From positions 225,900 to 289,899 of the forward strand of contig CANQNQ010000001.1 of the NCBI GenBank assembly GCA_947625225.1: DNA of 64,000 bases, in the 5' to 3' direction. Within the stretch, counting starts at the first letter, position 1, and every line of letters starts with the position of its first letter. Under the pieces are notes generated by a model, which saw only the letters and a list, made by a program, of their open reading frames with translations, ran no database searches and had not been told where the DNA came from. Shown piece after piece: positions 8,396 through 28,277 of this stretch. Source of the DNA: an uncultured Clostridia bacterium (GTDB taxonomy: Bacteria > Bacillota > Clostridia > Christensenellales > CAG-917). The translations under genes were made by a program, and so were the position numbers.

Positions 8396-8404
8396 TGTGG
8401 ATAA
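8396..8404. promoter_or_regulatory. Consensus DnaA box (TGTGGATAA)
   Basis: Exact 9-mer, 2 nt after the stop of the upstream gene. Confidence 0.7.
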
Positions 8405-8444
8405 AGTGAGGGACTGTGAACAAAATGTTGATATTCTTAAAAAG

Positions 8445-8453
8445 TTATCCACA
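8445..8453. promoter_or_regulatory. Consensus DnaA box (TTATCCACA), inverted relative to 8396-8404
   Basis: Exact 9-mer, followed by about 150 bp of AT-rich sequence (8455-8605) up to the dnaN start. Confidence 0.7.
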
Positions 8454-8605
8454 TATTGTAGAGGCAGAAAAACACAAAATATTGTTGTTTGTTTAGTATA
8501 AAAAGACAAGGCATTGTGTGAGGAAAAATAAAATCTACTTGTCAACAGAGCTTATTTATGTTATCATTATTAAAGAAATAATAAATAAATATAGAAAGGC
8601 GAGAT

Positions 8606-23746: not shown

Positions 23747-23797
23747 ATTTTTAATATTTATAATGCTTATAAATTTACTTTGTAAGAAGGAGGAAAC

Positions 23798-25708
23798 ATG
23801 GCAGACGAAGTAAAGCACAGTTATGACGCCGGCGATATCCAGGTGCTGGAAGGTTTGGATCCTGTTCGCAAGCGTCCGGGCATGTACATCGGCTCCACGG
23901 ACACGCGCGGTCTGCATCATCTTGTCACCGAGGTGGTCGACAACTCGATAGACGAGGCATTGGCGGGCTACTGCACGAAGATATCCGTCGAGATACTCAG
24001 CGACGGCGCCATCCGCGTCACGGACAACGGCAGGGGCATCCCTACGGGCATAATCGAGAAGGAAGGCAAGTCGGCGGTGGAGGTGGTCCTCACCAAGCTG
24101 CATGCGGGCGGCAAGTTCGGCAGCGGCGGCTACAAGATCTCCGGCGGTCTGCACGGCGTGGGCGTAAGCTGCGTCAACGCGCTTTCCGAGTGGCTTGTCG
24201 CCGAGGTAAGGCAGAACGGCAAGCTGTACCGTATCCGCTTCAACAGAGGCGTTGCGGAGCGTCCGCTTGCCATTGTGGGCGACGCCGAGGGCACGGGCAC
24301 AACGATAACTTTTTATCCCGACGACGAGATATTTGAAACGCTTGAGTTCAACTACGACACAATGAAGACGCGTCTGCGCGAGCTTGCCTACCTCAACAAG
24401 GGGTTGAGCATAGACATCTGCGACAAGCGCGTCACCCCCGAACGCAAGGAGACTTTCTGCTACGAGGGCGGCATCGTGTCCTTTGTGGAAGAGATGAACA
24501 AGACCAAGGAGACAATCTTCCCCGAGGTCATCTATTTTGACGAAAAGTACGTTGACAGCGAGGTGGAGGTGGCGATGCAGTACAACGACAGCTACTCCGA
24601 GACCATCCTTGCCTTTGCCAACAACATCAACACCGAAGAGGGCGGCACGCATCTTGACGGCTTCAAGTCGGCGATAACCAAGATAATCAACGATTACGGC
24701 ACCAAGGCGGGCATCCTCAAGGGCAGCGAGAAGCTAAGCGGCGAGGACGTGCGCGAGGGTCTTACGGCGGTCATCTCCGTCAAGCTTGCGGAGCCTCAGT
24801 TCGAGGGTCAGACAAAGACCAAGTTGGGCAACAGCACGATGCGCTCTGCGGTTGCGAAAGGCGTTTTGGAAGGCTTTGGCACCTATCTTGAGGAACATCC
24901 CCGCGAGGCGAAGGAACTTGTGTTAAAGACAGTTACAGCGCAGCGTGCGCGCGAAGCGGCGAGGCTCGCGAGAGAGAGCGCGCGCAGAAAGAGCGCGCTG
25001 GAGAGCACGACGCTCCCCGGCAAGCTTGCCGACTGCACGGACAAAAACCCCGCCAACTGCGAGATATACCTTGTCGAGGGCGATTCCGCAGGCGGCAGCG
25101 CAAAGCAGGGCAGAGACAGGCGTTTCCAGGCCATTCTGCCGCTGAGAGGCAAGATCCTCAACGTGGAGAAGGCGGCGCTGCACAGAGTGCTTGAAAACGA
25201 GGAGATCAAGGCGATGATAACCGCGTTCGGCTGCGGCATCAACGCCGAGTATGACGAAAGCAAGCTGCGCTACAACCGCATCATCTGCATGACGGACGCC
25301 GATGTGGACGGCAGCCACATCCGCATACTTATGTTGACCTTCTTCTTCCGCTTCATGAGGCCGCTTATAGAAAACGGGCACGTGTTCATTGCGCTCCCGC
25401 CCCTCTACAAGATCGCCAAAGGCAAGCAGGATCTGTACTTCTACGACGACGACAGCCTCAACAAGTATTACGAGGAAAACGGCCGCAAGAGCGGCGAGTT
25501 GCAGCGCTACAAAGGCTTGGGCGAGATGAACCCCGAGCAGCTGTGGGAGACCACTATGGACCCGCAGAACCGCACGCTGCTCAAGGTCACGATGGACGAC
25601 GCCATAGAGGCGGACAGGCTGTTCTCCATCCTCATGGGCGAACAACCCGAACTGCGCCGCGAGTTTATCGAACAGAACGCGACTCTGGTGACAGATCTGG
25701 ACGTATAA
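23798..25708 (+). CDS. gyrB: DNA gyrase subunit B
   Basis: [41 protein letters not shown], the LPGKLADC...[20 protein letters not shown] Toprim motif, and the [12 protein letters not shown]-like [15 protein letters not shown]. Confidence 0.97.
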
Positions 25709-25718
25709 GGGGGTAAAT

Positions 25719-28277
25719 ATGGCAAACATAAGAGACGACAAAAACAACGAATATGTGCAACATATTGCCAATTCCATCGTCAAGGACGTGGAGATCAACG
25801 GCGAGCTGAAGAGGTCGTTTATATCCTACGCCATGGCGGTCAACGTATCCCGCGCCATCCCCGACGTGCGCGACGGACTCAAGCCCGTACACAGGCGTAT
25901 ACTTTACGCTATGAGCGAGCTAGGCCTGACTCCCGACAAGCCCTACCGCAAGTGCGCCATGGTCGTCGGCGAGGTGCTTGGCAAGTACCATCCTCACGGC
26001 GACAGCTCGGTGTACGACGCGATGGTGCGCCTTGCGCAGGACTTCTCCATCCGCTGCCCCCTCATCGACGGACACGGCAACTTCGGCTCGGTGGACGGCG
26101 ACCCGGCGGCGGCTTACCGCTACACGGAGGCGAGGCTGAGCAAGATAGCGCTTGAGGTGATACGCGACATAGACAAGCGCACGGTGGACTTCTATCCCAA
26201 CTTCGACGACACGCGCGAGCAGCCCGTGGTGTTGCCTTCGCGCTTCCCCAACCTGCTTGTAAACGGCTCGGACGGCATTGCGGTGGGCATGGCGACCTCT
26301 ATCCCTCCCCACAATCTCGGCGAGGTCATAGACGCGACCGTGGCGCTTATACAGCATCCCGACATCACCGTGGACGAGTTGATGGAGTTTATCCCCGCGC
26401 CGGACTTCCCGACGGGCGCGCTTATTTTGGGCAGAAACACCATAAAGCAGGCGTACCGCACGGGCAGAGGCATGGCTATACTGCGCGCAAAGGCGGAGAT
26501 AGAGGAGATGGCAAACGGCAAGAGCCGCATTGTGGTCACCGAGATACCCTATCAGGTCAACAAAGCCAAACTTATCGAGAACATAGCCGACCAGGTCAAG
26601 GACAAGCGTCTTGAGGGCATTGCGGACCTCCGCGAGGAGACCGACCGCCACGGCATGCGCATCGTCATCGAGCTCAAAAAGGACGTTAACGCGCAGGTTT
26701 TGCTCAATCAACTGTACAAACAGACGGCAATGCAGACCAACTTCAGCATGATCATGCTGGCGCTGGTGGACGGCGTGCCGCGCGTGCTGAACCTCAAAGA
26801 GATACTTGAATGCTACGTCGCGCATCAGATGGACGTCATAGTGCGCCGCACGCGTTTTGACCTTGAAAAGGCGCTGGAAAGACAACACATTTTGCTTGGC
26901 TTGCACATAGCGCTTGAAAACATCGACGCTATTGTGGAGCTGCTCAAAAAGTCCCGCGACCGCCAGGACGCTATGGCGAAGTTGATGGAGGCATATCTGC
27001 TGTCCGACAAGCAGGCGGGCGCAATCCTCGACATGAGATTGCAGCGCTTGACCAGCCTCGAAGTGGAAAAGATAGAGGCGGAACTCGAAAGCCTTACAAA
27101 GCAGATAGAGTACTACAACCTCGTGCTGTCCAGCGACGACGAAGTCAAGGCGATAATAGTGCGCGAGATAAGCGAGATAAAGGCGCAATACGCCACCCCC
27201 AGACTGTCCGAGATCACCTATGACTACGGCGATATAGACATCGAGGACCTCATCGAGCGCGAGGACGTCATAATATCCATGACTCACGGCGGCTACATCA
27301 AGCGCATGCCCGTCAGCGAGTACAAAGCTCAGCGCCGCGGCGGCATGGGCATCACCGGTCACAAGACCAAGGACGAGGACTTTGTGGAGAATATATTCAC
27401 CTCCAACACGCACGAGAGGTTGATGTTCTTCACCAACCTCGGCAAAGTGTTCACGCTCAAGGCGTATGAGATCCCAGAGGCGACCCGCAACGCGCGCGGC
27501 AGAGCGGCGGTCAATCTGTTGCAGCTGGAGCAGGGCGAAAAGATACAGGCGTTCTTGCGCATGCCCGACGACCTCGAGGGCAAGTACCTGCTGCTGGCGA
27601 CAAAGCGCGGCCTGATAAAGAAGACTCCGCTTGTGGAGTTTGAATCCATCAAGCGCAACGGCAAGATAGCCATCAAGTTCAACGAGAACGACGAGCTTAT
27701 CGACGCCATGGTCACCGACGGCGACTCAGAACTTATAGTTGCCAACAGCGCGGGCCTCAGCATCCACTTCCACGAGAGAGACGTGCATCCCGTGGGCAGG
27801 ACGGCAATGGGCGTCAAAGCGATGAATTTGCCCGAGGGCGCAAACCTTGTGGCGCTGACCGTCGTCAAGCCCGGCGACGAGATCCTCACGGTCACCAGCG
27901 GCGGCTACGGCAAGCGCAGCGACGTGGCGGACTATCCGCTGCAGGGCAGAGCCGGCAAAGGCGTCAGAGCGGGCGTATTCAACGACAAGACGGGCAGCCT
28001 TGTGGGGCTGAAAGTCATCCCCGCCGATATGGACGTGATGATGATCACCGACGGCGGCGTCATAATCCGCGTGCAGGCCGACGAGATCAGCAAGATAGGC
28101 AGAGCCACTCAGGGCGTGCGCGTCATGAAGCTTAAGGACGACAAGATGAGCGTCATGGCAATAGCTCTCACTCCGCATGAGGATGAGGAGGAAGAAGGCG
28201 AAGCCGTCGAAGGCGCAGAGGGCGTCGATGGCGAGCAGATCATGGGCGAAAACGCAGGCGAAGGCGGCGAGGAGTAA
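25719..28277 (+). CDS. gyrA: DNA gyrase subunit A
   Basis: [51 protein letters not shown] (QRDR region), active-site [10 protein letters not shown], and an acidic C-terminal tail. Confidence 0.97.

Follow-up and report, generated by a model that had tools for sequence, protein, structure and literature searches.

We located a probable replication origin in a 64,000-nucleotide stretch of contig CANQNQ010000001.1 from an uncultured Clostridia bacterium (hereafter the window), in which the genes that usually surround a Firmicute origin stand in a non-canonical order. On the evidence of conserved motifs and strand asymmetry, oriC is likely to be the 211-bp intergenic region upstream of dnaN, which an old inversion that separated dnaA would have left with dnaN. 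The gene order itself is real, and normal for a clade of uncultured gut Clostridia.

In the canonical Firmicute cluster, parB-parA-(noc)-rsmG-mnmG-mnmE-jag-yidC-rnpA-rpmH lie on one side of oriC and dnaA-dnaN-(yaaA)-recF-gyrB-gyrA on the other. A Pfam profile search of the open reading frames (ORFs) of the window returned the identities and strands that a first-pass annotation had given, and with them the order that it had called scrambled: dnaN, dnaA, recF, parB, parA, rsmG, gyrB, gyrA (Table 1). It had placed the rpmH operon about 46 kb away on the plus strand, and we find 45.7 kb from the dnaA start to rpmH; the uncoupling of rsmG from mnmG is likewise confirmed, the two lying on opposite strands and far apart. 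Two details had to be corrected. Four plus-strand genes rather than five separate rsmG from a 4.6-kb ORF-free block (a PNP/UDP-type phosphorylase, here pnp, an AbrB/MazE-like gene, an ABC ATPase and an ABC-2 permease), and the label "PI-PLC-like" (phosphatidylinositol-specific phospholipase C) for the 384-aa orphan beside dnaN is nearly unsupported, with zero Pfam matches and PDB PI-PLC chains reached only at E=0.16. Relative to the canonical cluster, the members other than noc and yaaA are found within about 55 kb (a yaaA/S4-like gene was searched for only in the dnaN-recF interval), and gyrB-gyrA, parA-parB-rsmG and rpmH-to-mnmG are each kept as a block. In contrast, dnaA is inverted and follows dnaN instead of lying upstream and co-oriented, recF is divergent from dnaA, parB-parA-rsmG sit on the gyrB side, between recF and gyrB and head-on to the fork, and rpmH, split from rsmG together with mnmG, is on the same replichore as dnaA.

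To place this order among relatives, we used 58 loci from a DnaA scan, one genome per species, with DnaA identities of 58–77%; all are uncultured gut Clostridia, several of them labelled "Christensenella sp." or "uncultured Clostridia". The window proteins were placed on these loci by tblastn and the arrangements counted. dnaA and dnaN are convergent in 33/39 relatives, as in the window, and recF and dnaA are divergent in all 56 loci showing both, mostly across about 100–110 bp (110 bp in the window). Four discrete layouts emerged, and they track DnaA identity. Written with dnaA as plus, type A, that of the window (identity mostly 72–77%), reads pnp(-) rsmG(+) parA(+) parB(+) recF(-) dnaA(+) dnaN(-) arsP2(-); type B (67–72%) reads arsP2(-) recF(-) dnaA(+) dnaN(-) parA(+) parB(+) rsmG(-) pnp(+); type C (58–59%) reads recF(-) dnaA(+) dnaN(+); and type D (58%) reads dnaN(-) recF(-) dnaA(+) parB(-) rsmG(-) pnp(+) gyrB(+) gyrA(+). 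A distant Clostridia genome (38% DnaA identity) has the canonical textbook order. The departure from the canonical layout is thus genuine, but it is no anomaly of a single genome: dozens of related species-level genomes share the order. Such sharing is what the first-pass annotation had said would make the order merely lineage-typical, and the synteny comparison shows that it is.

Within this shuffled setting one intergenic element stays constant. We aligned with MAFFT roughly 330 bp upstream of dnaN from 36 genomes and found the last ~210 bp before dnaN conserved whether arsP2, parA, recF or dnaA lies upstream. The features keep a fixed order: three reverse DnaA boxes, a forward box, the motifs "caaaatattg" and "ttgtgg", a tandem forward pair of boxes, a spacer, DnaA-trios, and AT-rich DNA up to the dnaN ATG. 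The first reverse box and the single forward box are the only perfect DnaA boxes in intergenic DNA of the window. The tandem pair reads TTTTCCAC[T]TGTCAACA in relatives and AAATCTAC[T]TGTCAACA in the window (8531-8547); its box-a is identical, as TTTTCCACT (2 mismatches), in 28 of the 36 genomes and its box-b, as TTGTCAACA, in 31. The 4-bp spacer is constant in length and variable in sequence, while the trios are conserved. Written 3'-5', the trios of the window are AAT AAA TAC AAT AGT AAT AAT, that is, four consecutive trios and six of seven overall, and positions 8552-8600 have only 14% GC.

This arrangement resembles the basal unwinding system (BUS) of known origins. The published search rules ask for a co-oriented box pair with at most two and at most four mismatches, no more than 3 bp apart, then a spacer of no more than 16 bp to at least three DnaA-trios (NAN, on the strand written 3'-5'); the module of the window has such a box pair, spacer and trios, and the AT-rich element and extra upstream boxes as well. 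In the supplement of PMC8287927, the Bacillus subtilis entry is AATAGGTGT TTAGGTGT CCGG GATGATAAT... and that of Clostridium acetobutylicum AATAGTTGT TTAGGTGT GAGG GATGATGAT...; the distance from box-a to the trios, 12 bp, is equal in both species and in the window. In the window, the strict B. subtilis geometry has a single match, at 8531; it has none in any of 60 first-order Markov simulations of 64 kb or in 400 kb of an AT-rich null. When DnaA-box clusters were scored with a relaxed box pattern, the region upstream of dnaN was the top cluster in nearly every relative containing it (2–5 boxes per 300 bp, against a background of 0.14). In the four tandem-type relatives of type C (L049, L050, L052 and L054), the same ~210-bp element forms the dnaA-dnaN spacer, where the unwinding region of canonical Firmicute origins lies. 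With a conserved module of boxes, trios and AT-rich DNA upstream of dnaN, the puzzle of a window without a recognisable origin, which the first-pass annotation implied, largely dissolves.

Strand asymmetry may point to the same place. The cumulative GC skew of the window has its minimum at about 7.5 kb. When 36 relatives are aligned at the dnaN ATG and pooled, 10/10 of the 1-kb bins to the left have negative GC skew and 10/11 of those to the right positive skew; locus by locus, 31 of 35 have the lower value on the left, and each of the four arrangement groups shows this difference. Antisense ORFs that rival or exceed the real genes are found at 8648-9778(-), where the ORF opposite dnaN is longer than dnaN itself, and at 3206-5548(-) and 42144-49955(-), and such long antisense ORFs make longest-ORF strand calls unreliable in this genome. 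Stop-to-stop ORF strand calls being noisy, we used purine skew as a proxy for the coding strand, which it follows in the window. In many relatives (among them L003, L009, L010, L039 and most of type B), purine skew is negative left of dnaN and positive at dnaN, so that the usual coding-strand switch is visible there at the point upstream of dnaN. The first-pass annotation had seen no strand switch; this holds for the left flank of the window, which is mostly plus strand, but across relatives GC skew flips at this point, and many of them do show the switch.

Several observations weigh against an origin upstream of dnaN. The GC-skew change in the window is shallow, and similar negative stretches occur inside a giant gene at 38–44 kb. 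Three large genes to the left of the proposed oriC (orf1022, a UvrA paralog and arsP2) are on the plus strand and would be head-on to a leftward fork. A looser BUS grammar has four matches in the window, three of them besides 8531, and does not discriminate alone; since it matches elsewhere too, conservation carries most weight. Box-a is degenerate in the window species (4 mismatches), and a good sigma-A promoter of dnaN lies at the same place as the BUS-like module, so that promoter function could account for part of the conservation. Lastly, the relatives' loci reach only about 10 kb either side and are not independent samples. As for the head-on genes, arsP2 is the left neighbour of the proposed oriC in window-type genomes and adjoins dnaN in about 25 relatives. 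The UvrA paralog was found near dnaN, arsP2 or orf1022 in 0/80 related metagenome contigs, so that its placement here is recent and species-specific, and an exact-protein look-up returned no record of it; orf1022 and the UvrA paralog on the plus strand are a species-level peculiarity.

The overlapping promoter raises the question of whether the conserved element is only a DnaA-regulated dnaN promoter, with the true oriC elsewhere and possibly outside the window. We consider this unlikely. Once detached from dnaA, dnaN needs a promoter of its own, and a sigma-A-like one with a TG extension (TTGTCA-17-TATCAT, 8539-8567) overlaps box-b and the trios; the left-flank genes co-oriented with dnaN and the shallow skew of the window would also suit this reading. 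However, conservation extends beyond the needs of a promoter, to box-a upstream of the -35, to the rest of box-b, to trios inside the promoter spacer, and to four more boxes 90–210 bp upstream. Moreover, in the most distant relatives the element separates dnaA from dnaN, and transcription of dnaA could there continue into dnaN; the skew flips at this very spot in every arrangement group; and neither the window nor the ~10 kb on either side of the relatives' dnaA yielded another DnaA-box cluster.

Other intergenic positions were tried as oriC and rejected. The region upstream of rpmH (58010-58197) contains zero DnaA boxes with one mismatch or fewer. The gap between the 3' ends of dnaN and dnaA (10943-11169) contains two relaxed matches in AT-rich terminator DNA, which are unconserved, in a gap of variable length. 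The divergent recF-dnaA spacer has two promoters and one relaxed box, TTTTCAACA, without a box cluster or an AT-rich unwinding stretch. It had been described as having no good DnaA box; it indeed has no cluster, but the single relaxed box is conserved and lies upstream of the dnaA -35, where it could serve autoregulation of dnaA. Neither dnaA nor recF has a Shine-Dalgarno sequence and, with -10 hexamers 8–9 nt from their ATGs, both genes look nearly leaderless. This layout (TATAAT, 6–9 nt, ATG) is kept in relatives.

We then considered the ORF-free block upstream of gyrB, in which neither strand has an ORF of more than about 150 aa. All five matches of the window to the parS pattern TGTTTCACGTGAAACA fall in this block (0.27 expected). 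They are degenerate, with 1–3 mismatches, and the last two form a conserved pair 33 bp apart; within the block, blastn matched only the segment carrying this pair (20710-20896) to the fetched relatives, at 14 loci. In 933 kb of sequence (window and relatives), we counted 88 parS matches with at most two mismatches, all of them in the noncoding stretch beside pnp (towards gyrB where gyrB is in view), except two at the end of one contig (L056) near recF. Judged by these motifs, a conserved region with several parS sites forms the core of the block, about 12 kb away from the proposed oriC. That the block holds the origin, or a second half of it, seems very unlikely. It does contain the sharpest local GC-skew inversion of the window (from -0.50 to +0.61 around 20.4 kb), its centre is AT-rich, single DnaA-box-like sites occur at 20680, 23418 and 23515, and several relatives have one perfect DnaA box near a parS site. 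Yet DnaA boxes reach at most 2 per 300 bp and form no cluster, the blastn matches in relatives cover the parS pair and not the DnaA boxes, relatives lack such extreme skew in their equivalent regions, the cumulative skew minimum is at about 7.5 kb and not at 20 kb, and the one looser-grammar BUS match of the block (21462, minus strand) lacks the B. subtilis spacing.

The rest of the block is unusually structured. Its purine content is a mirror image, 43% in 19340-20340 and 68% in 21400-23400. Between 22850 and 23350 lie 27 A-tracts with a phasing of exactly 10.0 bp; their Fourier power is 20.7, where the highest of 500 shuffles gave 8.9, and they probably form about 450 bp of intrinsically curved DNA, 0.5–0.9 kb upstream of gyrB. 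A strong leftward promoter-like site lies at 20960-20932. An identity as an RNA or a mobile element was rejected: even with the threshold relaxed to E<=1, the block had no match in Rfam, nor did distant blastn find one among plasmids and phages; G-quadruplex motif counts were uninformative. The central parS cluster, the outward purine-rich strands, the duplicated ~430-bp unit, the phased A-tracts and the outward-facing promoter could together identify the block as a structured centromere or boundary element of a new type, beyond a parS landing pad, a reading that we hold to be quite improbable. If it were true, the block might yield divergent purine-rich non-coding transcripts, or R-loop or curved DNA that shapes ParB/SMC loading or gyrB expression.

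We controlled the assembly with same-species contigs from separate metagenome assemblies, which were located by exact-protein look-up and compared to the window by megablast. At 99.99–100% identity they match 8980-17086 (pnp through dnaN) and 10195-14314; 19864-27394 and 20769-30075, which take in gyrB, gyrA, the PepSY gene behind them and the greater part of the ORF-free block; and 53576-62131 (tetR, ABC/FtsX, rpmH through mnmE), whose junctions are given by contig L165. The purine-rich segment is reproduced in two independent assemblies (L163 and L164). Misassembly, which the first-pass annotation had named as a possible cause of the order, is thereby excluded for the junctions covered. The junctions arsP2-dnaN and pnp/ABC genes into the block are beyond this cover. 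Other species also have arsP2 next to dnaN and a noncoding stretch with parS sites between pnp and gyrB; the ABC genes of the window (17619-19159) were not found there. Hence, although the source is evidently a metagenome-derived genome and the junctions at 1-8980, 17086-19864 and 30–53 kb have no same-species replicate, a chimeric contig or a binning artefact is effectively refuted, as separate assemblies repeat pnp-rsmG-parA-parB-recF-dnaA-orphan-dnaN, block-gyrB-gyrA-PepSY and tetR-ABC-rpmH...mnmE, and many other species share the arsP2-dnaN and pnp-parS region-gyrB adjacencies.

The best explanation of the whole is that a few old inversions, now fixed in the clade, reshuffled the ancestral Firmicute origin cluster. 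In the simplest history, the starting layout would have been like that of the relatives with 58–59% DnaA identity, recF(-) dnaA(+) oriC dnaN(+); in one of them, L052, the order is pnp(-) rsmG(+) parA(+) parB(+) ... recF(-) dnaA(+) oriC dnaN(+). One inversion of the oriC-dnaN cassette, with breakpoints right after the dnaA stop codon and downstream of dnaN, would convert this into type A and would leave dnaA in the fork-relative orientation of the canonical layout (head-on). As for function, the four DnaA boxes upstream of dnaN would recruit DnaA, and the tandem pair with its 4-bp spacer would direct a DnaA oligomer onto the trios and the AT-rich stretch, so that the duplex would open toward dnaN, as in the incC origin of B. 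subtilis. DnaA would be supplied in trans by the convergent dnaA gene 2.6 kb away, probably from an almost leaderless mRNA with one weak DnaA box in its promoter. ParB would load about 12 kb to the right, on the noncoding stretch with several conserved parS sites that precedes gyrB.

The arrangement can be compared with known cases. The canonical ORI (origin) cluster has been inferred for the Firmicute ancestor (PMC8136486), and in Streptococcaceae it is reported to be dislocated, with dnaA and dnaN together (Garcia et al. 2021, PMC8136486). There, as here, the break-up of the ancestral cluster is fixed throughout a Firmicute lineage; however, the Streptococcaceae keep dnaA/dnaN as one piece and have lost parA, whereas here dnaA is parted from oriC-dnaN, parA has been retained and the pieces still lie inside about 55 kb. 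The rpmH-to-mnmG operon is found ~50 kb to the right of the proposed oriC and is transcribed in the direction of the rightward fork. With the incC BUS origin of B. subtilis and Clostridium (Richardson 2016/2019; Pelliciari 2021, PMC8287927), the putative module shares tandem co-oriented boxes with one base in common, a 4-bp GC-rich spacer, at least four trios with a central A, AT-rich DNA, an orientation toward dnaN and further boxes upstream. It differs in having no dnaA upstream, and hence no incA/B half, in trios of the AAT/AAA type instead of GAT and in its degenerate box-a. Cyanobacterial origins adjoin dnaN, with dnaA elsewhere, as a rule (Gao 2014, PMC4009838), and the route proposed for them is that an ancestral dnaA-oriC-dnaN was broken and the origin stayed with dnaN (PMC4009838). 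Here too a DnaA-box cluster adjoins dnaN without dnaA upstream, but in another phylum and with dnaA only 1.5–2.6 kb off and convergent with dnaN, while the cyanobacterial dnaA is usually far. The oriC of Escherichia coli likewise no longer adjoins dnaA (PMC6669920). The predicted centromere agrees with ParABS systems in its 16-bp palindromes matching TGTTNCACGTGAAACA, 11–12 kb from the proposed oriC, and in the presence of parA and parB; in contrast to them, its sites are in a dedicated noncoding region of 2–4.6 kb upstream of gyrB, not inside parB or other genes, and those of the window species are flanked by strongly strand-asymmetric repeats. A full-text literature search found no paper joining "Christensenellales" with "oriC". 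The origin arrangement adds a further lineage to kinds that are already known and does not constitute a kind of its own.

Nothing is overturned by this, since dislocated clusters (Streptococcaceae) and dnaN-linked origins (cyanobacteria) were already known. Origin finders and annotators that assume oriC to flank dnaA would nevertheless search the wrong place in an abundant group of uncultured gut Clostridia. A placement upstream of dnaN would be useful for genome start coordinates and for growth-rate estimates from metagenome coverage (peak-to-trough ratios). The clade would also be a natural experiment, in which the unwinding module would have been severed from dnaA precisely at the stop codon of that gene, with loss of the incA/B-like half upstream; it supports the view that a box pair and trios beside dnaN are the portable core of Firmicute origins.

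Table 1. Features of the window (positions in the 64,000-nucleotide stretch)
Feature	Position	Strand	Remarks
UvrA-like paralog	3275-5785	+	UvrA DNA-binding and ABC domains; listed ORF starts 273 nt too early
arsP2 (ArsP_2-family membrane protein)	7294-8394	+	Pfam PF11449, E=1.8e-19
Proposed oriC	8395-8605		211 bp, 27.5% GC, intergenic; conserved upstream of dnaN
DnaA box, perfect	8396-8404	-	TTATCCACA on minus strand; TGTGGATAA in alignment order
DnaA-box-like TGTGAACAA	8415-8423	-	2 mismatches; TGTTGACAA or TGTGGATAA at the aligned position in relatives
DnaA-box-like TGTTGATAT	8426-8434	-	2 mismatches; conserved position
DnaA box, perfect, TTATCCACA	8445-8453	+	Perfect copy ~150 bp upstream of dnaN in at least 11 relatives
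BUS-like module	8531-8572	+	Points at dnaN
Box-a AAATCTACT	8531-8539	+	4 mismatches
Box-b TTGTCAACA	8539-8547	+	2 mismatches; one base common to box-a
Spacer GAGC	8548-8551		4 bp, GC-rich
Trios TTA TTT ATG TTA TCA TTA TTA	8552-8572		
dnaN (beta clamp)	8606-9706	+	Three DNA_pol3_beta Pfam domains
384-aa orphan	9788-10942	+	No Pfam match; N-terminal hydrophobic segment
dnaA	11170-12543	-	Pfam Bac_DnaA, Bac_DnaA_C, DnaA_N; convergent with dnaN
recF-dnaA divergent promoter region	12544-12653		
dnaA promoter TTGAAT-16-TATAAT	12580-12553	-	-10 ends 9 nt before ATG
Relaxed DnaA box TTTTCAACA	12623-12615	-	Conserved; upstream of dnaA -35
recF promoter	12617-12645	+	-10 ends 8 nt before ATG
recF	12654-13742	+	ORF from 12645, real ATG 12654; Pfam SMC_N, AAA_23; divergent neighbour of dnaA
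parB	13844-14734	-	Pfam ParB_N, HTH_ParB
parA (soj)	14815-15579	-	Pfam AAA_31, CbiA
rsmG (gidB)	15790-16488	-	Pfam GidB; apart from mnmG
pnp (PNP/UDP-type phosphorylase)	16571-17332	+	
AbrB/MazE-like small gene	17408-17725	+	
ABC ATPase and ABC-2 permease	17619-19159	+	
ORF-free block	19160-23797		4.6 kb
parS cluster	19296-20762		Five matches to TGTTTCACGTGAAACA, starts 19296, 19726, 20446, 20714, 20747
Purine-rich ORF-free segment	21400-23400	+	68% purine, GC skew up to +0.61
Diverged direct repeat, ~430-bp unit	21418-21834 vs 22142-22570		72.5% identity
gyrB	23798-25708	+	Pfam
gyrA	25719-28277	+	Pfam; adjoins gyrB, co-oriented with dnaN and recF
rpmH	58198-58332	+	Followed by rnpA, yidD, yidC, jag, mnmE, mnmG, all +
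mnmG	62316 to window end (64000)	+	

The convergent gap between dnaN and dnaA varies from 41 bp to 8.4 kb among relatives (L003-L060) and is an insertion hot spot. Among the relatives mapped, only the same-species contigs L001 and L002 contain the 384-aa orphan, and its insertion into this gap is specific to the species. Over the whole window, 9-mers within one mismatch of TTATCCACA number 30, about three times the 9.75 +/- 3.0 of dinucleotide shuffles, and most of them are intragenic. To the left of arsP2, the spacer that separates it from a tRNA-Asn gene (7015-7293) is T-rich, with 24% GC, a 44-bp tandem repeat at 7090-7177 and strong divergent promoter-like sites at 7062-7034(-) and 7273-7301(+). 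An S-adenosylmethionine (SAM) riboswitch at 6146-6237(-) exceeds the gathering score with its 51 bits. The small ORF downstream of it (5812-6177(-)) has no Pfam match; the ORF start as listed overlaps the SAM aptamer, and the true start is probably further downstream. To the right of gyrB, 33489-48758 is one plus-strand ORF of 5089 aa with long antisense ORFs inside. Among the very few minus-strand genes in the 40 kb right of gyrB is spo0A at 50108-50944(-), with Spo0A_C and receiver domains, which indicates that the lineage keeps the sporulation master regulator.

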